A DNA stretch of 12,860 nt from a virus. The notes beneath the pieces were generated by a model. That model ran no database searches. It was not told where the DNA came from and worked only from the letters and a program-made list of their open reading frames with translations. Position 1 is the first letter of the stretch. Each line of letters opens with the position of its first letter. Shown here piece by piece: positions 1,597 through 12,860 of this stretch. Both the position numbers and the translations under genes were made by a program. The stretch is from the IMG/VR virus record IMGVR_UViG_3300023082_000067, positions 1-12,860 of that record; one strand, given 5' to 3'.

Positions 1597-2105
1597 TAAG
1601 TTAATTCCTCTATTACTATTGGTGTGAGTTGGTGAAGCTCTCTAATTACAGCTTCAAACATGTCTACAAGTTCAGGGAATGGAACAGGTTCACCCAATGG
1701 GCTACCTTCTGGCCCCGGTTGGTCTGTAGTTGTGTATAAGCAGTCAAACTGAAAGTGTTTAGGTGCTCTACCGGCTTTGGTGTAGTCCTTAGAAGCAATA
1801 ATTACATACCAGCCTTCTTGTTGCCCTACTTGACTGTTACCACTCACCCAAGCATAAGTTTTAACTTGTGTTGCTTGTGGGGGTAAGTCACCGTATGCAG
1901 GAAGGTCACGAAGGTATAAGGTTCTGTAATTCTTGTAACTAGTGCCATAGTCAGCAAGGCTAAACATTGTTCCTTGTTTGAATGGTTGAATGTTACCCTT
2001 TACAAAGAATGGTTCTGTGGTGAAGGTTTGAAAGTCACCGTCAACATAGTAGCCATAGGTTGTAACAAAGGGAACCCAGTTTCTATAGAATGCTGCAATG
2101 CTCAT
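1596..2105 (-). CDS. hypothetical virion protein (169 aa), possible head-tail joining or neck component
   Basis: ATGA overlap with the terL stop and TAATG overlap with the fibre start, so it is translationally coupled between terminase and fibre. Looks beta-rich. No motif I can name. Confidence 0.7.
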   Translation of the reverse strand: MSIAAFYRNWVPFVTTYGYYVDGDFQTFTTEPFFVKGNIQPFKQGTMFSLADYGTSYKNYRTLYLRDLPAYGDLPPQATQVKTYAWVSGNSQVGQQEGWYVIIASKDYTKAGRAPKHFQFDCLYTTTDQPGPEGSPLGEPVPFPELVDMFEAVIRELHQLTPIVIEELT

Positions 2106-3595
2106 AGTAGCGTACTACCTCCCAAGCGTTTATATTGTGTTGAGTTCTGGTTAATACGAATAGTAGGAATTAAACTACCACCCGTTAGCATGTTGTAGCA
2201 GCTAGCCACGGCATCGACGATATCGTCATGTTGTCCGCTACAGTTATTACCGTCGAACGCTTCCATTTCTGCATAGTGTTCTTTAGTAAACACACCGGGA
2301 GCTACAAACACTTTCCCTTCTTGTAAAGCAATTAGAAAGTTCTCGGCTCGTGCCAACTTGCCCTTTCTTGTACTGTCTAGCACCACCTTATGACCTAATG
2401 CAGTCAAGCGGGCTTTCTTCTGGTCTGCTACCACCCTACCAGACGCACCAGCGTCAACAGGAATGGTTACATAGGTTTCTCTACCGTCTTCTTTAGCAGT
2501 GTTCTCAATTAGAGCCTGTACCATTGCTGGCCCGTCTCTGAGGCTTACCATATTCAGAATGTAGAAGTATCCAGCGTTCTTGTCATAAGTGGCCTTAATA
2601 CCCCGAGTCCAGTCAGGATCTTTGTTCCCTGCATGGGGTTTTGTACTAGCTAGGTCATAACTGCGAACAGTGGGCAAACCTAGTGGTATTTCTCTCAAGC
2701 TCACTTCTTTGAATTCGTCACGGTCAATATATCCGTCACCCTCAGTTTTAATAAACCAGTTGCCGAGCAGGTAGCGAGCGCGGTCTACAGTTTTCAAGTT
2801 CTCAAGTTTATGAACGTACTGTGGGAGGTGCTTACGAACATAGGGGTTATCGTAGACATTTGCCGAGTAATAAACGAACTTGAGGTGCATTGCGGCTTGT
2901 TCCTTACCTACCTCAGCTACCATGTCTTCAAACGTTTTCCACCACCTAAATTCCCCAGCAACTTGCAACATATACGTGGTTACACCGTCCCTCTCTTTAA
3001 TTGCATAACCGTCTTCACCTACATAGCCAGCATTAACAAGCCAAGTGCAAAGGAAGCTGGTATTCAGAGGGTTACAAGTAAGGCGTAGTTGGTGTTTCTG
3101 TTTACTCTTGGAACGTAACCTTGACGTCAAAAACCAGACGTCTTCTTCTTGACACTGTTGGCTTTCGTCTACCAGACATTCAGTCATTTGTGACCCATGC
3201 CAGTCGTCTTGGTTATTGAACAAGTGGTGACACTTAACCTCAGCACCAGACGGGAAAGCCCAACTACTTTCAATTTTGTTTGACGTAATGTTGTATGGTG
3301 CAAACAAGCGTATGCCTGTACTCCACAAACTACCCGCCATTTTCATTTGCTTTTGACTAGCCCGAGCTACACCAGCAACATAGTTCTTATCCCACATACC
3401 AGCGAGCATAAGACGAATTAAACTTAACTGTGTCTTACCTGCCGAAGCAGCCCCACCCCACACTACAATGTCATGCACGTTATCATTGAGGTAGGTTTCT
3501 TGTTTAATTGACAGCGGACATAGAATTTCAATTTCTTCTAGGTCTTCTTGTGTTAGGTGAAACGTGTAATTAAACTCTCTTTTTGCCTTAGCCAT
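2102..3595 (-). CDS. terL: terminase large subunit (497 aa)
   Basis: Walker A VVWGGAASAGKTQ and Walker B CLVDESQQ. C-terminal RNaseH-like nuclease signatures IPVDAGASG and HDDIVDAVASCY. GAGG RBS 8 nt upstream of the ATG at 3595. Confidence 0.95.
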   Translation of the reverse strand: MAKAKREFNYTFHLTQEDLEEIEILCPLSIKQETYLNDNVHDIVVWGGAASAGKTQLSLIRLMLAGMWDKNYVAGVARASQKQMKMAGSLWSTGIRLFAPYNITSNKIESSWAFPSGAEVKCHHLFNNQDDWHGSQMTECLVDESQQCQEEDVWFLTSRLRSKSKQKHQLRLTCNPLNTSFLCTWLVNAGYVGEDGYAIKERDGVTTYMLQVAGEFRWWKTFEDMVAEVGKEQAAMHLKFVYYSANVYDNPYVRKHLPQYVHKLENLKTVDRARYLLGNWFIKTEGDGYIDRDEFKEVSLREIPLGLPTVRSYDLASTKPHAGNKDPDWTRGIKATYDKNAGYFYILNMVSLRDGPAMVQALIENTAKEDGRETYVTIPVDAGASGRVVADQKKARLTALGHKVVLDSTRKGKLARAENFLIALQEGKVFVAPGVFTKEHYAEMEAFDGNNCSGQHDDIVDAVASCYNMLTGGSLIPTIRINQNSTQYKRLGGSTLL

Positions 3596-3667: not shown

Positions 3668-4672
3668 TTACGCACCAACAGTAAGGGCAACAGTTGCACC
3701 GAATTGTTCGTTAATAACCAGAGTGCTTTGCTCAGACTCTACTTCAACGTAACGGTCTTTCGGGTCACGGTAGGTAGAAGCGAAACGACGCGAACCAACA
3801 CCACCCAAACCAGACAGGGTAGAAGCTGGGCCGTAGAACGAAACACCCAGTTCAGTACGTGGAACCAGAACGCCAGCACCGTCAGCCAGAACTTCAACAA
3901 CAGCACCAGTCTTAGTGGTGAAGGTGTCGTCATACAGAACTACGTCAACGTTGCCGAAACGGAACATGGTGTAACCGTTAGCTACAGAACCAAGCTCGTT
4001 ACGCAGTGGGTTGCCCGAAGCCTGAGAGAACTGGTAGGCAGTGGCAACGTCTGGGCTTGCAATAATTTCAGCAAACATTTCAGCAGAAGCAAACAGAATG
4101 TAACCCTGAATACGACCGCCATTCATGAGGCCAGCACGGCTTTGAGCTTGAGCAGCACGCAGGTCAGCCAGAACAGTAGCAGAGCTAATAGTACCGGTAG
4201 GACGTGCAACACCGAACTCAGTAGCCATGTTAATGGTGCCGTAGTTGGTAGTAACAACAACACCGTTCAAGGTCATTTGAGCTTTCAGGTATTCTTCATG
4301 TACGTCATGACGCATTGCTTGACGTTCAAGTTCTTGTGCAACAGCTTGAGCAACAATTGCTTCACCTTCGCTACCGAATGCACGAACTCCAGCCAGTTTT
4401 TCACGGCCAAGAGTTTTAACAATTGGGTAGTGCGGAATAGCCAGAGTGTGAATGTCAAAAGGGCTGTCTTCGGTGCTGTTCTTCTGTGCTACGTTGCGCA
4501 GGTGGTCGTCCAGAATAGCCAAGCTATTTTCACGAACGTCAAAGCTAACAGCGTCAGTACGAACAGTTTCACCACGGTACAGACCAAGGGAACCAATAAG
4601 GCCGGGTTGAAACGGAATACGTTCAATGGCGGAAGTTTGGTCTACAACTTGGGTGTTATTCAGAATAGGCAT
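3668..4672 (-). CDS. major capsid protein, HK97 fold, lambda gpE-like (334 aa)
   Basis: Size, position after the scaffold and decoration genes, and overall resemblance to the phage major capsid protein E family (N-terminal PILNNTQV...IERIPFQPGLIGSLGLY, C-terminal STLVINEQFGATVALTV). AAGGA RBS, and followed by a strong terminator. Confidence 0.88.
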   Translation of the reverse strand: MPILNNTQVVDQTSAIERIPFQPGLIGSLGLYRGETVRTDAVSFDVRENSLAILDDHLRNVAQKNSTEDSPFDIHTLAIPHYPIVKTLGREKLAGVRAFGSEGEAIVAQAVAQELERQAMRHDVHEEYLKAQMTLNGVVVTTNYGTINMATEFGVARPTGTISSATVLADLRAAQAQSRAGLMNGGRIQGYILFASAEMFAEIIASPDVATAYQFSQASGNPLRNELGSVANGYTMFRFGNVDVVLYDDTFTTKTGAVVEVLADGAGVLVPRTELGVSFYGPASTLSGLGGVGSRRFASTYRDPKDRYVEVESEQSTLVINEQFGATVALTVGA

Positions 4673-4701
4673 TATTTATTTTTCCTTAGTATTAATTTAA
4701 A

Positions 4702-5028
4702 TTACTTGTTAACTACAACAATGCCAGCGTCAGCAAAGGCAGCGTCATGAGTTGCAGCTACATAGCCAACAAGGGCTTGAGCGTTTACAGTGGTAGGGTT
4801 GCCGCGAGTCATGAGACGTACACGAGTACCAATTGCCCACTGACCAGAGCCGTTAACAGCAGAAGGGAACACAGCAGTACCAACAATAGCGAAACCGCCG
4901 TTGTAAGCAACAACTTGACCAGACACAGCAGCAACAGCCAAAGCAACTTCGTCAAACGGTACGTTATAGTCACCATTCATTTGTACAATGAAGTCTTCTT
5001 GAGCACCAACAGTAGCGATAATAGGCAT
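4702..5028 (-). CDS. small head protein, probable decoration or cement protein (108 aa)
   Basis: Gly/Ala/Val-rich small protein encoded directly upstream of the capsid gene. It shares an almost identical ~30-nt translation initiation region with the capsid gene, and both proteins start MPI. TAATG overlap with the scaffold stop. Confidence 0.55.
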   Translation of the reverse strand: MPIIATVGAQEDFIVQMNGDYNVPFDEVALAVAAVSGQVVAYNGGFAIVGTAVFPSAVNGSGQWAIGTRVRLMTRGNPTTVNAQALVGYVAATHDAAFADAGIVVVNK

Positions 5029-5387
5029 TATTTATTTCCTTTGTATTTTTCAGAGAGGTAAGAGTCAACAAGGTTTTCGCCTTCGTCGGCGGTGTTGTCT
5101 TGTTGGTCTTGTTTCGTTTCAGGGTTAGTTTCTTTCTTGAACCAGTCACCACCACTAATGGTTTCGATCTGGCGTTCTTTCGTTTCCAGCAGTTCAAAGA
5201 CTGTGTTAAAACCTTCTTGGCCTTGCAGTTTCATAAAGACTGGGGCAAGTTCGTTAACTAGTTCTTCGTCGTACACAATGCCCTTGAGGCGTTGTTTAAT
5301 TTGCTCCTCAAGAGCACCTTTGTTTTCGTCTGCTTTCTTGTTAGCACTCCCCAAGAGGCGTTCTAACAGACTCGGTTTTTCACTCAT
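5028..5387 (-). CDS. scaffolding protein (119 aa)
   Basis: Highly charged, apparently helical and acidic protein (EEQIKQRLKGIVYDEELVNELAPVFMKLQ...) between the portal and capsid genes. No protease gene is present. Confidence 0.6.
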   Translation of the reverse strand: MSEKPSLLERLLGSANKKADENKGALEEQIKQRLKGIVYDEELVNELAPVFMKLQGQEGFNTVFELLETKERQIETISGGDWFKKETNPETKQDQQDNTADEGENLVDSYLSEKYKGNK

Positions 5388-7972: not shown

Positions 7973-8015
7973 ATAGGCACCACACTAACCATGTCCTATA
8001 CATAGGCACCATACT
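7973..8015. repeat. direct repeat pair ATAGGCACCA(C/T)ACT
   Basis: The 14-mers at 7973-7986 and 8002-8015 differ at one position and start 29 bp apart. They sit in non-coding DNA just after the 52-aa ORF. Confidence 0.7.
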
Positions 8016-8282: not shown

Positions 8283-9203
8283 TTATACTGACATAACATA
8301 TTCTTCAAACTCCGGCATTGAGTCAAAGTCTGGAACCCAATTGTCTATTTCTTCTTTGAAGTAGTCGCTAACGTCAGCACCAACATTGTTTGCAAACCAA
8401 GCCTCAAACCCAATGTCAATTACTTCATTCTTCTTAGGTGCCTTGTTCCACCATTCGCCGGGGCTAAAGTCTTCTGCACTATCAAACAATGTAAAGCCAT
8501 TACCACGCACTTCATAATTGTTAGTACCGCTGTACTTGGTTGTAATGTCAAACACAGGTCCAGTGTACGGCGCTGGTGGTCCAACAAAAGGTTCATACAG
8601 TGCGCGTTGCTGTGTCTCTTTATCGAGCTTGTAATACGTGTTGTTGGCACTAGGAATACCGCTTGCACGTCCCTTGTAACCAAGCATAGGAGCAATGAAC
8701 AACTTAATAAAGCCTTTCTTACTCTCTTGCTGTTGTACCCATTCCTCTACAAGCTTCAACTTACGTGCTAGGTTGGACTCATTAATACCAAGCTTTGCAC
8801 ACAAGAAAGAACGCTTACAAAGAATAATGTTCTTATAGCTAATGCACTCTACAAGCTGTTTCATGAACTTGTATTGAGGCGTGCTAATTAATGCTTTCTC
8901 TTTCAGTGTCCGTACACGGTAGTCACTTTCTTTCTTGAACCATGTAAGGTCTGACTTTAGCTTTAGTCCTCGTTGGTCAACAGTGGCTTTCATAACGTCA
9001 CTCAACTGGTCAGGGTCTGTACACTCATGAGCGGTACGAACAGTGGCAGAGTAAAACCGTTTGTCGTCTGTGCTAGCTTGGGTGTTGACAACCTCATACA
9101 CAGGAGTAATAATTTCACCAGTGACAAGGTCAACAAGGTGTTTACCAATTGCAGCCGTGTTTTCAGTTACTTCATACATTGGTTGTGGTACATGGTTAAG
9201 CAT
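8283..9203 (-). CDS. winged-helix DNA-binding protein, candidate replication initiator (306 aa)
   Basis: I prefer the ATG at 9203 (AGAGGT RBS 6-7 nt upstream) over the TTG at 9218. Central HTH-like segment LCAKLGINESNLARKLKLVEEWV and an acidic C-terminal tail DFDSMPEFEEYV. It is the only sizeable non-structural protein in the genome. The function is inferred, not recognised. Confidence 0.8.
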   Translation of the reverse strand: MLNHVPQPMYEVTENTAAIGKHLVDLVTGEIITPVYEVVNTQASTDDKRFYSATVRTAHECTDPDQLSDVMKATVDQRGLKLKSDLTWFKKESDYRVRTLKEKALISTPQYKFMKQLVECISYKNIILCKRSFLCAKLGINESNLARKLKLVEEWVQQQESKKGFIKLFIAPMLGYKGRASGIPSANNTYYKLDKETQQRALYEPFVGPPAPYTGPVFDITTKYSGTNNYEVRGNGFTLFDSAEDFSPGEWWNKAPKKNEVIDIGFEAWFANNVGADVSDYFKEEIDNWVPDFDSMPEFEEYVMSV

Positions 9204-9324
9204 TTTCTTACCTCTCAAGGTTGAATTGTGTCCGTCACTAAATGGAAAAGTGAAGACTAAATAGGGCTACAGCCCACGGTTTATAAGGGGTGTACTAGTT
9301 TTCTTATTACTTTATAAAGAAACT

Positions 9325-9513
9325 CTATTTCTGTTTAGCACTCAAGGCTAACAGAATATTATCCAACAGTAAAGAAGGGCTTTGGTTTTGTGTAACAGCT
9401 AGAGAGTCAAGAAACAACAAACTCTCTTTTGAAAGGTAGAACCGACGACGAATAAGGTTTTTATCTTTTACCACTTGCTCGCTGTCTTTACTTAGTTTAA
9501 CATACTCACTCAT
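9325..9513 (-). CDS. ribbon-helix-helix (Arc/CopG-type) transcriptional regulator (62 aa)
   Basis: IRRRFYLSKESLLFLDSLAVTQNQSPSLLLDNILLAL fits the beta strand-helix-turn-helix pattern. GAGG RBS. It is the first gene of the long minus-strand unit, next to the divergent control region. Confidence 0.6.
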   Translation of the reverse strand: MSEYVKLSKDSEQVVKDKNLIRRRFYLSKESLLFLDSLAVTQNQSPSLLLDNILLALSAKQK

Positions 9514-9619
9514 TGGAACGCCTCTATAGGTTTGGTTTTAAAAAGAAAGAATTATTTCTCCCCTTTCTCATTATAAGTATAACATGGTTTTGGTAGTTTG
9601 TATATAGCAATAAGCATTT

Positions 9620-9638
9620 AGTTACAAATAAAGTAACT
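9620..9638. promoter_or_regulatory. candidate operator AGTTAC-N7-GTAACT
   Basis: Perfect 6-bp inverted repeat with a 7-bp AT spacer. Confidence 0.45.
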
Positions 9639-9760
9639 TTCTGTTAGTGCTATAAAAACCTCTACCTCTTAATATTATAGTACCATGTATTTTTAATTCT
9701 GTAAAGCATTATTTGTTGTAAGTGCAAGAAAAACGTGTTAAAGGGCTTAAAAGTGAAGGA

Positions 9761-9806
9761 ATTCTGACAGACGGTCTTGTATTATAGAGAATTATAGAGT
9801 CAGAAT
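9761..9806. promoter_or_regulatory. composite element: 8-bp inverted repeat ATTCTGAC/GTCAGAAT enclosing the tandem repeat ATTATAGAG(A/T) x2 (9781-9800)
   Basis: Read directly from the sequence: attctgac at 9761-9768, attatagaga and attatagagt at 9781-9800, gtcagaat at 9799-9806. Confidence 0.5.
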
Positions 9807-9938
9807 AATTGTTTTTGTCTGTTAGAAAGCAGACGAACGGTATGCACTTTGTTTGTGTATAGGCTTGCGTGCCTGTGTGGTTCTGTTATTCTGTACCTAC
9901 ACCAACTGAGAAGCCCAAGAGGGCTAAGGTAGAAAGAA

Positions 9939-10217
9939 ATGGAACACGTAGCCACCATTAGCCAAATGCGTAACCTGTTAGACTCAACAGCCGGTAAAAT
10001 ATTCTCTGTGACATTCGTAAAGAAAGACGGCACTGTTAGAGACATGGTTTGCAGGAACGAAGTAACAAAGGGCACTAGCGGCGGTGTAGCTGGTCACGCA
10101 CACAAAGAAGAACTTTACACTGTGTATGACATTCAGGCTCAAGGCTTTCGCTGTGTTAACCTCACAACTGTAAAACGTATTAAGTGTGGTGAACTCAACA
10201 AGGAGTGGTATGTATGA
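9939..10217 (+). CDS. small SH3-like beta-barrel protein of unknown function (92 aa)
   Basis: The pattern KIFSVTFVKKDGTVRDMVCR...LYTVYDIQAQGFRCVNLTTVKRIK matches my memory of a widespread small phage protein family (DUF2693-like), not verified. An AAGG RBS-like element lies upstream. Confidence 0.65.
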   Translation: MEHVATISQMRNLLDSTAGKIFSVTFVKKDGTVRDMVCRNEVTKGTSGGVAGHAHKEELYTVYDIQAQGFRCVNLTTVKRIKCGELNKEWYV

Positions 10218-10351
10218 GCGTGCAATTGTTCATTGAAGGTGAACCAAACGTGTACTCTGTTGTCATATTTAAGAACATGAGTATTGTGCAAGAAATACAG
10301 AGAGCAGCTAGGAAATTCGGTAAGCGTTGTTTTTATATACCTTGTGCATAG
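10214..10351 (+). CDS. small unlisted ORF (45 aa), MSVQLFIEGEPNVYSVVIFKNMSIVQEIQRAARKFGKRCFYIPCA
   Basis: ATGA overlap with the stop of the 92-aa gene, and a strong AAGGAG 8 nt upstream of the ATG. A terminator follows. Confidence 0.5.
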   Translation: MSVQLFIEGEPNVYSVVIFKNMSIVQEIQRAARKFGKRCFYIPCA

Positions 10352-10389
10352 CTGTCGCTCTATAAATATAGTGTTTGGTTCGTCCCTTT

Positions 10390-10413
10390 GCCCCTTCCCC
10401 GAGGGGCTTTTTT
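10390..10413 (+). terminator. rho-independent terminator at the convergent junction
   Basis: GCCCCT-tccccg-AGGGGC followed by T6. The T tract overlaps the o-spanin stop codon on the other strand, so the hairpin may serve both converging units. Confidence 0.8.
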
Positions 10414-10636
10414 ATGGGCGTAACTTATTCAACTGTGCGTTACCCTTCCTTACTTCCAGTGTCAAGCTAATGTAGCATTGTGCTAGCTCTGTCTCGCTGT
10501 AGTCATTCAGTGGGCATTCAGCAAGCGCCTGAACGTCATACACAGGACAAACGTTAGGGCTTACCATTGAAGTCTTTGAGCACCCTAGTAACAGGCTCAG
10601 ACAGAGAGTTGTTAACCCCATTCTTGTTACGTTCAT
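10412..10636 (-). CDS. o-spanin (outer-membrane lipoprotein, 74 aa)
   Basis: Signal sequence with lipobox LLLGC (Cys19). The start is embedded in the i-spanin gene in another frame and the ORF extends past its stop (overlapped architecture). Several further Cys residues. Confidence 0.8.
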   Translation of the reverse strand: MNVTRMGLTTLCLSLLLGCSKTSMVSPNVCPVYDVQALAECPLNDYSETELAQCYISLTLEVRKGNAQLNKLRP

Positions 10637-10928
10637 CGGCTATACCTTTGAGTGTGAGTGTGTAGGAGTCCAGTTCCTTTTTAAACTTAGCTGTCATTGT
10701 GTCTAACTCTTTGTTCCAGTCTTTACGCTGTTGCTCATAGAGTTTCATTTGTTGTATTGAGTATTCAGCAGACTCTAACTTACTTTGACTTACAGCTAGC
10801 TCCCAATTGCGGTTAGAAAGCTCATTACTTAGCGTCATATATGAGTAAAGGAACCACGTTAGGACTAAACCCAAGCTGACCCACAGCACAGCACTAAATG
10901 TTATTTTACTTGTTATAAATGCCCACAT
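10554..10928 (-). CDS. i-spanin (124 aa)
   Basis: N-terminal TM segment FSAVLWVSLGLVLTWFLYSY followed by coiled-coil sequence. Lies directly after the endolysin gene and overlaps the o-spanin gene. Confidence 0.8.
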   Translation of the reverse strand: MWAFITSKITFSAVLWVSLGLVLTWFLYSYMTLSNELSNRNWELAVSQSKLESAEYSIQQMKLYEQQRKDWNKELDTMTAKFKKELDSYTLTLKGIADERNKNGVNNSLSEPVTRVLKDFNGKP

Positions 10929-11478
10929 ATTCCCATATCCTTTTAACGTATGTTGTTGTCTCTACAGAATGCTTTCCTGTAATGAGTGGAAGTGCTTTTG
11001 CCATTGGTTCATAATAAAGGCTGTTACCTCCTTTAGCTTGTGCCTTCAATATGTTTCCAAGTCCAGCGTTATAGCTAGCTAGTGCTAAAGAGTGTCTGTC
11101 TACTTCTGGTCTAGGCTTCTTAAACTGTCCTCTCAAGTAGTTCATATAATAAGCATGAGCTTGAATGTTGTAAGAGGAAGCATAAGCTTTAGTTCCAACT
11201 GGAAACCCTAACTCCTTACTAACCTGTGTCCAAGTGTCGGGCATGAACTGACCTAACCCCATAGCACCAACTGGTGACGTTGCTTGTGTGTCTAAGCGAC
11301 TCTCAGCTACTAATTGAGCCTTTGCCCACACCCAAGGTATAGAAGGGTTGTAAACAGCGTTCCATTTGGCTATTTGTAGGTCATAAATGGTGTTACGGAG
11401 AGCGTTAGCACTAGTAGGAGTACACACACCAAGGGTAGCTAATAAGAGAGCTAGAACTACACTATAAATGCGACACAT
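10906..11478 (-). CDS. endolysin, family-1 lytic transglycosylase (SLT domain) with N-terminal signal sequence (190 aa)
   Basis: Catalytic AES, then GAMGLGQFMPDTW and SYNAGLGN motifs. The N-terminus MCRIYSVVLALLLATLGVCTPTSANA looks like a Sec signal or SAR segment. Confidence 0.88.
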   Translation of the reverse strand: MCRIYSVVLALLLATLGVCTPTSANALRNTIYDLQIAKWNAVYNPSIPWVWAKAQLVAESRLDTQATSPVGAMGLGQFMPDTWTQVSKELGFPVGTKAYASSYNIQAHAYYMNYLRGQFKKPRPEVDRHSLALASYNAGLGNILKAQAKGGNSLYYEPMAKALPLITGKHSVETTTYVKRIWEYVGIYNK

Positions 11479-11690
11479 ACAATTAACCCTAGAGCAATGG
11501 AACTACCAAGAAACCTAAGACCATAGTAATGACTCATAGCTTTAGGACACTCTTCTATTCTGTCAAAGGCTTTCTTAAAGTCTATACCTAATAGCTTGTC
11601 AAAGAACTTTAATAGGACGTATTGAGTGAGTAGAAAGAGAATGAATGCAACTAAACCCATTCCAAGTTTAAGCATAAAGAGAGTAAACAT
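11457..11690 (-). CDS. holin, two TM segments (77 aa)
   Basis: Hydrophobic segments at about residues 5-27 and 56-77 with a charged linker. It sits immediately upstream of the endolysin gene and overlaps it by 22 nt. AAGGA RBS. Confidence 0.7.
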   Translation of the reverse strand: MFTLFMLKLGMGLVAFILFLLTQYVLLKFFDKLLGIDFKKAFDRIEECPKAMSHYYGLRFLGSSIALGLIVCVAFIV

Positions 11691-11705
11691 ATTAAATATT
11701 TCCTT

Positions 11706-11720
11706 CGTGCATATTGCACG
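11706..11720. promoter_or_regulatory. 15-bp palindrome CGTGCA-TAT-TGCACG abutting the holin RBS
   Basis: Perfect 6-bp arms. On the minus strand it reads CGTGCAATATGCACG and is followed directly by AAGGAAAT(N8)ATG. Confidence 0.5.
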
Positions 11721-11812
11721 GTTAGTATTGAGTTAGTTAAGTTCGGTTAAATGCTCTGAACTCCTTATATAGCAAGGGTTGTAGGCAATTACCTTAGTTG
11801 TGTTAGTGTTAC

Positions 11813-11874
11813 TTACGTTGGCCCGACGACATTTTTTTGACGTTGTCAACACTTATTTTACGTCACCGACGAAC
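11813..11874. repeat. direct repeat TTACGT(TGGC/CA)CCGACGA flanking a T7 tract
   Basis: TTACGTTGGCCCGACGAC at 11813-11830 and TTACGTCACCGACGAAC at 11858-11874, with atttttttgacgttgtcaac between them. Confidence 0.6.
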
Positions 11875-11889
11875 GGTTACTGCCAGAAT

Positions 11890-12335
11890 ACTGACACAAT
11901 GTCCAATGAATAATATCTATCGACTAGGTTTGTCCAATAGTATTTACCTATGTGTCTAGTCATTGTATTTATCTATCAGCTCAGCAGTCCTAATAGAGTA
12001 TGACTAAGACAGAGAGCTAGCACACACAGAGTAGACTGTCAAGTGTAGCTGACCAATGGTACTGTATAAGTTAACAGGTATTGACACACATACTGAACTG
12101 TGCATAGCAACCTTGTAGCTACTATAGAGTACGTGGAATATAGATAATATGTTAAATTGAAATAAAACTTCTTTCAGTTATTTACTGCTTTGTCAAGTAG
12201 TTTATTCTCATTGCATATTTCTATTCATTTGTGTCAGTCAATAGAGTGTGACTATGCTGTGTGTATAGGTTTAGTCTATCGAATGTCTGTGTCCAATGAA
12301 TACATACAATTAGACAAGCTCACCAATATCCTGTA
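11890..12335. repeat. iteron-like repeat field around an AT-rich core, candidate origin of replication and/or packaging site
   Basis: TGTCCAATGAATA occurs exactly at 11900-11912 and 12290-12302. Each copy is followed 30-31 bp later by a degenerate copy (TGTCCAATAGTAT at 11931, TCACCAATATCCT at 12320). A further TGACCAATGGTAC lies at 12050. AATAGAGT(A/G)TGACTA occurs at 11992-12006 and 12240-12254. The AT-rich stretch spans roughly 12131-12232. Confidence 0.55.
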
Positions 12336-12522
12336 AAATAATAGTTGACGCCCCTATGAAAAGCATAGTCCCATTACCACATTTTATTAGAATACCCCGC
12401 CTAATAGCTGTACCCTATTTATGGAACATTTGGAAAAGAAACCTCTACAGGCTACTTTGTGTTTCCCCGACTACATATAGCCACACATACATTAGTTATT
12501 ATTCGTCAGTAGACACTAAACT

Positions 12523-12753
12523 CTATGGTTTAGCGTTATGCTCTACTTGAATTTTAATTATCTCTACGTCCGTTTTCAGCTTATTAAGTGTGGCGTTAAT
12601 ATCACCTAGAACGTCGAGCTTTGTTTCTACCTTAGTTAGTCGTGAGTCTACGTCTTCCAGCTTCTTAAAGCGGTCTTTAATTAACCACCCAATGAAACCA
12701 AGTAGACCCACAACCACTATACCAACTAACCATATAGCGCTTGCAGGTTCCAT
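12523..12753 (-). CDS. small membrane-anchored coiled-coil protein (76 aa), function unknown
   Basis: ATG at 12753 (equivalent to position 20), with AAGGAGAG upstream, 16 nt after the fibre stop across the junction. N-terminal TM segment IWLVGIVVVGLLGFIGWLI, then a heptad-like KKLEDVDSRLTKVETKLDVLGDINATLNKLKTDVEII. Confidence 0.75.
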   Translation of the reverse strand: MEPASAIWLVGIVVVGLLGFIGWLIKDRFKKLEDVDSRLTKVETKLDVLGDINATLNKLKTDVEIIKIQVEHNAKP

Positions 12754-12860
12754 ACTATTCTCTCCTTAGTTACAGGGTAACACCGTTAACCCGAGTCCAA
12801 TAACCAGTAGCACCGTTACCATGCCATACGAATATTTTACCGAAGTCAGGGGCTGCATAT
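12734..12860. repeat. terminal direct repeat, copy 2. 12770-12860 is a redundant partial copy of the fibre gene 3' end, not a second gene.
   Basis: Identical to 1-127. A length of 127 fits a de Bruijn k-mer overlap of a circular assembly, or a short physical DTR. Confidence 0.95.

Follow-up and report, generated by a model that had tools for sequence, protein, structure and literature searches.

A gene-free gap with dyad repeats and a conserved predicted promoter in a family of very small tailed phages

Introduction

The virus record IMGVR_UViG_3300023082_000067 of IMG/VR is a stretch of 12,860 nucleotides, here called the window, in which 832 bp (6.5% of the genome) form a gap without genes. 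The genomes of its relatives measure 12–13.6 kb, close to the lower size limit of tailed phages, for which the smallest cited genome is 11.6 kb (bioRxiv 10.1101/2025.06.18.659913), yet each member devotes about 6% of its DNA to such a gap. What is this gap for? An earlier examination made from the sequence alone (the original prediction) proposed a replication origin, in which iterons flanking an unwinding element are bound by a winged helix-turn-helix (wHTH) protein of the same genome, with a packaging (pac) site or a non-coding RNA locus as alternatives. Comparison with the relatives suggests another answer. As judged from its sequence, the gap is a coding-free array of repeats of the protein-binding type, and not an ordinary untranslated region or a set of small genes. 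It is probably not a replication origin as first proposed. Tentatively, we read it as a protein-free transcription-control hub that separates the late structural operon from the lysis cassette.

A gene-free gap is present in every relative

Relatives were collected from IMG/VR and by a search with the 76-amino-acid (aa) protein encoded beside the gap, which yielded 24 distinct genomes or large fragments (denoted by L numbers). A gene-free gap of 733–881 bp lies at the equivalent place in all 24, between the fibre and 76-aa genes on one side and the lysis cassette on the other. The claim that the region is free of coding sequence was borne out on the circle of 12,733 bp, since no open reading frame (ORF) in it is conserved. 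The longest ORF of the gap in the window has 64 aa, and its start and frame are not retained among the relatives. In public annotations the gap is empty throughout the relatives except for two non-conserved short calls, of 66 aa in L019 (codons 1–50 of which are called on the cut contig L020 as well) and of 49 aa in L267. None of the 102 ORFs of at least 25 aa in 13 gaps is conserved in frame, start and length, and similarities between gap peptides merely follow the conserved DNA blocks, with frame, start and length shifting. The gaps of the relatives are 45–70% identical to that of the window. Conservation is patchy, with short invariant blocks amid freely varying, indel-rich sequence, which is the pattern of DNA signals and not of a gene.

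A 15-bp dyad is phased to a conserved predicted promoter

The main repeat of the gap, ATAG-N7-CTAT, is a dyad of 15 bp. Exact sites number 37 in the 12.1 kb of gaps of 15 complete genomes versus eight in their other 175 kb, a 67-fold enrichment. It is seen only with 7 nt between the half-sites; spacings of 3–6 and 8–12 nt give 0–2 copies. The window has seven sites with at most one mismatch (four exact, three with one mismatch) where 0.86 are expected, and this number was reached in none of 1000 shuffles. The sites form two clusters about 275 bp apart, a left trio and a right trio, plus one site at 12404. Seven of the eight dyads outside the gaps lie in an early control region between the genes for a 62-aa protein and a WYL_2 protein, adjoining GACGAACGGT.

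The second element of the gap is a rightward predicted promoter, P3, which is the top promoter match in 9200–12860, with hexamers at 10/12. It is found in 22 of the 24 relatives. The hexamers are kept (variants TGGACA/TAGAAA and TATAAT) and the spacer is variable, as is typical of a sigma70 promoter, in which hexamers 17±1 bp apart are conserved while the spacer drifts. When all gaps were scanned on both strands for sigma70 promoters, P3 alone was consistent, leftward candidates being confined to subsets of genomes. The strongest conservation of the gap falls on 12306–12385. This stretch includes a leader of about 40 nt immediately downstream of P3, which is nearly invariant and forms the most conserved block in gaps that are otherwise 45–70% identical among the 24 genomes. 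Downstream of P3 the plus strand is C-rich and G-poor (C 0.20–0.37, G 0.09–0.18 in 15 representative genomes); this DNA is unstructured and extends toward the point where the leftward late operon ends. Three relatives (L017:9641-10413, L018:9235-10001 and L003:2713-3489) carry the leader part GTCCC-N7-CAT(A/T)T in tandem, two to three times at a spacing of about 30 nt, downstream of P3.

Dyads and promoter are not independent of each other. In 15 divergent genomes the dyad centres hold fixed distances to the predicted P3 start, namely −44, −75, −100 to −130 and +64, and the second cluster is found at −330 to −430. Since the dyads are phase-locked to P3 in divergent genomes, the two belong together. 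The arrangement of 4-bp half-sites one helical turn apart suggests a small dimeric regulator as the binder. An array of short repeated half-sites, as would be expected of an operator array or centromere for ribbon-helix-helix (RHH) proteins, is present. We infer that the best candidate for the binder is the RHH-like 62-aa protein, which is encoded by all members and in which two helices follow an invariant RRRFYL stretch. The gaps of the most divergent members, L015:10220-11028 and L016:1491-2315, have few ATAG-N7-CTAT sites and carry instead three copies of the palindrome TTAGCTTGCTAA. The homologue of the 62-aa protein is shorter in these two genomes (49 aa), so that operator and regulator could have changed together.

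Oriented boxes link the gap to the early control region

Besides the dyad, three boxes are concentrated in the gaps and share a common orientation. TGTCCAAT is found 23 times on the plus and seven times on the minus strand of the gaps, versus nine and zero times elsewhere. For GACSARYGGT the counts are 21 and zero versus eight and zero, and for TGTCAAG 21 and four versus 40 and 27 in the remaining DNA, which is 14.5-fold larger. Outside the gaps, the inspected copies of GACSARYGGT map to the control region that separates the 62-aa and WYL_2 genes. GACGAACGGT recurs in this early region in most relatives, and in relatives the ATAG-N7-CTAT dyad adjoins it. The region (9514–9938), which separates the two genes, is the second low-GC control region of the genome (GC 0.24–0.29). 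It has the GACRRACGGT motif in common with the gap and, in relatives, also ATAG-N7-CTAT. Leftward promoter-like sites are found in it at 9705–9677 and 9604–9576, and a conserved rightward promoter, TTGxxx-17-TATTCT, near 9866–9893.

All repeats listed in the original prediction are present, and the conservation that it had named as a check was found, the gap motifs recurring among the relatives. The 13-mer TGTCCAATGAATA occurs at 11900 and 12290 and nowhere else. An exact direct repeat of 13 nt was reached in 8 of 1000 dinucleotide shuffles of the region, which makes it unusual for this size and composition. The 15-mer AATAGAGT(A/G)TGACTA at 11992 and 12240 was confirmed, as were TCTATCGA (11916, 12275) and TAGGTTT in both arms, and the TTACGT...CCGACGA pair noted at 11813 and 11858 is seen in the sequence. 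Both repeat families of the prediction are instances of the ATAG-N7-CTAT dyad or overlap it. The mirrored order of the repeats is equally real and is accounted for by the left and right trios: dyads start at 11937, 11962 and 11993 and at 12210, 12241 and 12265, with spacings of 25 and 31 followed by 31 and 24. The CCAAT-box partners proposed for both 13-mers fared unevenly. The first copy indeed has an exact TGTCCAAT at 11931, 31 bp downstream, but the partner of the second, CACCAAT at ~12321, lies inside the promoter spacer, is not conserved in relatives and probably reflects chance. What had been counted as a fifth box at ~12050 belongs to a separate motif, GACCAATGGT. In several relatives the 13-mer box takes the form TGTCCAATTG, which is reverse-complementary to the P3 −35 region CAATTGGACA. 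At 12060–12079 the window also has TACTGTATAAGTTAACAGGT, with the LexA-box skeleton CTGT-N8-ACAG directly before TTGACA (12081–12086); this LexA-like sequence is present only in the window and L019 and may be due to chance.

Both ends of the gap carry further conserved elements (Table 1). The hairpin in front of the holin-like 77-aa gene is present in most relatives, and in L269, L018 and L015/L016 it is different yet self-complementary. Variant stems among the relatives are CGTGCA/TGCACG, GTGT/ACAC and GACAAT/ATTGTC. RNAalifold made no call on the hairpin at 11706–11720. Such variation under maintained self-complementarity, directly before the holin-like ribosome-binding site, suggests a 5′ stem on the lysis mRNA. 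Upstream of the conserved block GTTGGCCCGAC, most relatives (L012, L015-L018, L021 and L262-L270) repeat TGTTACTYRGGG(G/T)AAC in direct orientation two or three times at intervals of about 21 nt, an array of which 11752–11815 in the window is a degenerate remnant.

The AT-rich core bears a putative Xer-type site in one clade

The AT-rich segment at the centre of the original prediction is real. The GC content of 12121–12240 is 0.24–0.25, the joint minimum of the genome together with 9531–9700. About 16 of the 24 relatives have lost the core or have other DNA in its place; where present, it bears a site resembling those of the XerCD recombinases. We scored this site against the arms of Escherichia coli dif, ColE1 cer and Acinetobacter baumannii dif. 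In the window the XerD arm matches at 10/11 and the XerC arm is degenerate (7/11); the total of 17/22 was reached in 48 of 300 shuffles and is not significant alone. The homologous site scores 21/22 in L023-type genomes and 20/22 in L019, and these values were reached in none of 300 shuffles. In six relatives the XerC arm, central region and XerD arm read TGTTCGTATAA, TAAAGAGA (TAAAGATA in L009 and L011) and ATATGTTAAAT. The L019 site reads TGTGCGTACAA, TGTAGACA and ATATGTTAAAT, and its arm TGTGCGTACAA agrees with the ColE1 cer arm at 10/11. The site is confined to eight of the 24 genomes, the other 16 being at background.

The chromosomal dif of A. baumannii is TGTTCGTATAA tgtata TTATGTTAAAT (PMC10132070), and TTATGTTAAAT is the XerD arm across Proteobacteria (PMC2731167). 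The XerC arm of the sister genomes is identical to the A. baumannii arm, and the XerD arm ATATGTTAAAT matches TTATGTTAAAT at 10/11. The layout, in which 11-bp arms for XerC and XerD lie on either side of a central region, is that of dif, cer/psi/pdif and the dif-like attP sites of integrative mobile elements exploiting Xer (IMEX). However, the central region in the phages has 8 bp and not 6 bp as in dif-type sites. Plasmid sites of the cer type have such an 8-bp central region and reportedly need accessory sequences and proteins (PMC2731167); no sites for accessory factors were identified in the phages. Unlike known Xer sites, the phage site is found in one clade only, its XerC arm has decayed in the window, and no integrated copy was seen among contigs with the 76-aa gene, the longest of which has 13.6 kb. 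The type of phage also differs: the phages that we found described with dif-like sites are filamentous or tailless (PMC12715192), as are the IMEX elements of the CTX-type inoviruses and the dif-type double-jelly-roll phages, whereas the genomes studied here are those of tailed phages. We read the sequence as a genuine Xer-type site that was gained in one clade and is decaying in the window. It suggests that the circular genomes are, or formerly were, handled by the host dimer-resolution machinery.

The gap evolves independently of the wHTH gene

The wHTH protein (306 aa in the original prediction, 311 aa here) had been put forward as the binder of the gap repeats. Its gene has been exchanged for an unrelated one between genomes whose gaps remain 92–94% identical, which speaks against this role. 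The slot after the 62-aa gene holds either a type A gene (248–311 aa, winged-helix) or an unrelated type B gene (245–253 aa); the latter is often accompanied by an additional ORF of ~63–72 aa. Gap identity is 94% between L267 (A) and L268 (B), 92% between L265 (B) and L267 (A), and 79% between L023 (B) and L009 (A). Mean identity of the gaps is 0.615 for genomes of the same wHTH type and 0.593 for those of different types. The exchanged DNA is the bare ORF cassette (L265:7181-8198 versus L267:4691-5624) in genomes that are otherwise 97–98% identical. Since the gap is independent of the wHTH type, sites specific for the wHTH protein cannot be in it. The 311-aa protein has no match in Pfam, PHROG, NCBIfam or a PDB sequence search. 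Its AlphaFold model (mean predicted local distance difference test, pLDDT, 62.6) gives weak winged-helix matches in Foldseek (best E = 9e-3; plasmid Rep 8aan, E = 0.095), from which the protein is predicted to be DNA-binding.

The remaining elements of an iteron origin were not found either. The direct repeats of the gap are boxes of 7–10 bp at irregular spacing, and three or more regular direct iterons of ~17–22 bp are absent from it; no convincing iterons were found inside or adjoining the wHTH gene. There is no conserved AT-rich unwinding element, the core having gone from about 16 of the 24 relatives, and with two wHTH families the repeats do not co-vary with the candidate initiator gene. 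GC skew, whose cumulative form had been suggested as a check, tracks gene direction and has no switch or origin signal in the gap. With iteron origins such as lambda ori and those of Rep_3/RepA plasmids, the gap shares non-coding repeats and a segment of low GC content, and the genome encodes a wHTH protein. It differs in that the repeats here are dyads and not direct 17–22-bp iterons, the AT-rich part is not conserved, and there is no co-evolution with the wHTH gene.

Genome organisation and features of the window

Positions 1–127 of the window are an exact copy of 12734–12860. This terminal identity of 127 bp means that the 12,733-bp genome was assembled as a circle or in circularly permuted form. 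The fibre gene spans the region of the circle junction. The minus strand carries every gene except one (Table 1). The spanin and WYL_2 units converge on a GC-rich hairpin with a T-run at 10390–10407. Of the small genes of the family, that of the 76-aa protein is the best conserved. It is located just before the gap and the lysis genes, and its product, in which a single N-terminal membrane helix is combined with a coiled coil, may be part of the lysis system. As a query this protein retrieved 156 protein clusters, all on contigs of at most 13.6 kb.

No similar DNA was found in searches of GenBank phages, of PLSDB plasmids or of complete E. coli genomes. Among GenBank phages, the closest cultured ones reach at most 33% identity in the terminase and 29% in the capsid. 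The group is a new family of very small tailed phages without a cultured relative. Matches of the endolysin and fibre are to gammaproteobacterial phages only (Vibrio, Pseudomonas), at identities of at most 49%, and the dif arm is the sole basis of a connection to Acinetobacter.

Two further repeats are located outside the control regions. Positions 4664–4681 and 5020–5037 are identical over 18 nt (AATAGGCATTATTTATTT, plus strand) and cover the start codons of the capsid and 108-aa genes; both proteins start with MPI, and neither gene has an obvious Shine-Dalgarno sequence. ATAGGCACCA(C/T)ACT occurs twice at 7973–8015, 29 nt apart, in the 465-bp stretch between the 311-aa and 170-aa genes, which is non-coding and is kept between type A and type B genomes.

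Table 1. Coordinates of the gap elements and of the genes of the window
Feature	Position	Strand	Remarks
Gene-free control region	11691–12522		between 77-aa gene (11457–11690, minus) and 76-aa gene (12523–12753, minus)
Hairpin CGTGCATATTGCACG	11706–11720	−	directly 5′ of the 77-aa gene Shine-Dalgarno
Conserved block GTTGGCCCGAC	11817–11827	+	kept in most relatives
TTGTCAA(G) box, copy 1	11843–11849	+	
GACGAACGGTTACTG motif, copy 1	11868–11882	+	
13-mer copy 1 (TGTCCAAT box)	11900–11912	+	box position kept across the family
TGTCCAAT box 2, overlapping dyad O1	11931–11951	+	O1 (ATAG TATTTAC CTAT, exact) at 11937–11951
Dyad O2 (ATTG TATTTAT CTAT)	11962–11976		one mismatch
Dyad O3 (ATAG AGTATGA CTAA)	11993–12007		one mismatch; 15-mer copy 1
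TGTCAAG box and GACCAATGGT	12037–12060	+	second box/motif module; box 12037–12043, GACCAATGGT 12051–12060
dif/cer-like site AGTACGTGGAA, TATAGATA, ATATGTTAAAT	12128–12157	+	left edge of the AT-rich core
TGTCAAG box, copy 3	12191–12197	+	
Dyad O4	12210–12224		one mismatch; centre −130 from P3 start
Dyad O5	12241–12255		exact; 15-mer copy 2; centre −99 from P3 start
Dyad O6	12265–12279		exact; centre −75; site at −75 in most relatives
13-mer copy 2 (TGTCCAAT box)	12290–12302	+	just upstream of P3 −35; partly kept as TGTC(C/A/T)AAT
Predicted promoter P3, TAGACA - 17 nt - TAAAAT	12311–12339	+	points right, opposing all flanking genes
Leader TTGACGCCCC-N5-AAAAGCATAGTCCCA-N7-CAT	12345–12382	+	predicted start ~12344–12348
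Dyad O7	12404–12418		exact; centre +64; same place in L009, L023, L266
Conserved 3′ block ATATAGCCACACATACATTAGTTATTATTCGTCAGTAGAC	12475–12514	+	adjoins stop codon of the 76-aa gene; most relatives
Early control region copies (outside the gap)	9766–9841	+	GACAGACGGT at 9766, GACGAACGGT at 9832
62-aa protein gene	9513–9325	−	first gene of the leftward operon
311-aa wHTH protein gene	9218–8283	−	second in transcription order
Genes for 170-aa, 83-aa, portal and scaffold-like proteins, lambda-E-type capsid, large terminase, 169-aa protein, 519-aa fibre		−	following the wHTH gene
Large terminase gene	2102–3595		
76-aa membrane/coiled-coil protein gene	12753–12523	−	reached across the circle junction
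Holin-like 77-aa gene	11457–11690	−	directly beyond the gap (12522–11691)
SLT endolysin and Rz/Rz1-like spanin genes		−	after the holin-like gene; terminator near 10400 closes the unit
92-aa WYL_2 gene	9939–10217	+	sole plus-strand gene; divergent from the 62-aa gene

A proposed control hub and its alternatives

What the sequences show directly is how the gap is built, that it is conserved, that it is linked to the early control region and that it does not depend on the wHTH gene. The function that we tentatively assign to it, that of a control hub, would operate as follows. A small dimeric regulator common to every member, preferably the RHH-like 62-aa protein, would bind the dyads and loop the two clusters together, thereby switching P3. 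P3 would fire head-on into RNA polymerase coming from the fibre and 76-aa genes, and its activity, by governing how late transcription enters the lysis cassette, would set the timing with which the downstream holin, endolysin and spanins are expressed. Several points count against such a hub. The activity of P3, its end point and its effect on the lysis genes are all things that we infer from the sequence. In the window, no leftward sigma70 promoter that could convincingly serve the lysis genes was detected. The terminator-like hairpins on the minus strand, 50–100 nt past the 76-aa gene, speak for the hub but are limited to several relatives. The RHH fold of the 62-aa protein was not confirmed by Pfam (no valid match, the one sub-threshold match being to Coilin_N with 17.6 bits versus a cutoff of 32.9), by PDB sequence search (nothing relevant) or by Foldseek (no match to the AlphaFold monomer, pLDDT 84.9). 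A conserved complementary trans target of the invariant leader at a consistent position was not found in the 11 genomes searched, and a purely antisense or collision role does not account for the near-invariance of the leader. Finally, GTTGGCCCGAC, GACGAAYGGT, TGTCAAG and the 3′ block are not explained by the hub. A more elaborate version, in which the looped clusters enclose a dif mimic, the circle uses XerCD for dimer resolution or dif integration, and lysis is timed by collision, appears quite improbable to us.

Among the alternatives, an origin served by host factors or by a conserved phage protein instead of the wHTH protein, with P3 for transcriptional activation or as the source of a primer, is one that we consider unlikely. 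The gap is the largest non-coding stretch, clusters of protein-binding motifs flank a segment of GC 0.24 with a strong conserved promoter alongside, the wHTH gene and its surroundings lack iterons too, and the phage encodes no polymerase. However, about two thirds of the relatives lack the AT-rich core, the sole candidate initiator does not co-vary, and the motifs are dyads common to a promoter region and phased to P3. In addition, the C-rich, G-poor P3 RNA is unfavourable for a persistent RNA–DNA hybrid, GC skew does not switch at the gap, and a DnaA-box cluster was not seen by eye, no systematic scan having been run. The dyads could instead be centromere or copy-control sites of a small RHH-type protein which, together with a cer-like XerCD site, stabilise a circular episome; short-repeat arrays are typical of RHH centromeres and of omega-type regulators. 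Such a plasmid-like maintenance locus would also agree with the circular assembly of the genomes and with the absence of contigs longer than 13.6 kb carrying the 76-aa gene, so that no integrated copies are seen, and its Xer site has the 8-bp central region of plasmid cer-type sites (PMC2731167). Nevertheless, we judge it rather improbable, given that only 8 of 24 genomes have the Xer site, in a degenerate form in the case of the window, and that promoter-phased sites indicate transcription control. Moreover, there is no ParA/ParM-type nucleoside triphosphatase among the Pfam families recorded for the called genes of the family, which comprise only SLT, WYL_2, Portal_Mu, Phage_cap_E and Terminase_6N/6C.

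The two alternatives already named in the original prediction have lower probability. A pac or cos site, with terminase binding the invariant block 12306–12385 and the adjacent boxes, is very unlikely: the gap is not adjacent to the terminase gene, a small terminase subunit was not identified, and conservation of the −35 and −10 hexamers fits a promoter. Starts of full-length contigs are scattered and none falls at the block, although circular or permuted assemblies cannot exclude pac. In its favour, the leader block is conserved above most of the genome and, like the terminase, is independent of the replication-gene type, and pac regions may overlap promoters, as in SPP1. For a structured non-coding RNA gene or genes of small proteins, the conserved promoter and invariant 5′ leader with no ORF could be cited, but the ORFs of the gap are not conserved, and we found neither an Rfam match nor a conserved fold, nor a complementary target. 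An Rfam search of the whole window at E≤1 gave no match in the gap and a single sub-threshold match to STnc100 at 10317–10419, which is explained by its coincidence with the terminator hairpin at 10390–10407. ARAGORN found no tRNA or transfer-messenger RNA. Folding energies do not differ significantly from those of shuffled sequences (z = +0.55 for the P3 RNA; −0.60 and −1.75 for the whole gap on the two strands), and RNAalifold returned no conserved pairs for the P3 RNA (21 sequences) or the left part of the minus strand (15 sequences). Thus, an RNA or small-protein locus is hardly probable.

Comparison with known systems and implications

The control hub favoured here resembles several known arrangements. 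As in the operator arrays of P22 Arc/Mnt, plasmid omega and CopG-type RHH proteins, there are multiple short sites with fixed 4-bp half-sites one turn apart, which cluster at or over a promoter and recur in the control region of the candidate regulator itself. The two clusters a few hundred bp apart are reminiscent of lambda OL/OR. In contrast to those operator arrays, at least seven sites are spread over ~480 bp of non-coding DNA, the binder is a candidate only, and the surrounded promoter opposes all neighbouring genes with no ORF downstream. P3 is also comparable to convergent or antisense promoters (lambda oop and paQ, P22 sar), being a constitutive-looking sigma70 promoter directed against a long phage operon. 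Unlike these, it lies in a non-coding gap and not opposite a gene, its leader is invariant, and its RNA has no predicted structure or terminator in most genomes.

ATAG-N7-CTAT, P3 and the Xer-like site are each short and well defined. Should the XerCD site prove functional, tailed phages would join the filamentous and tailless phages in which we found the exploitation of Xer described. Should the more elaborate version of the hub be correct, this would be the first case of a tailed phage that persists as a circle exploiting host XerCD, and lysis would be timed by promoter collision instead of a dedicated late activator. More generally, the function of the gap would reveal how a minimal phage runs its timing, and possibly its persistence, with almost no regulatory proteins.

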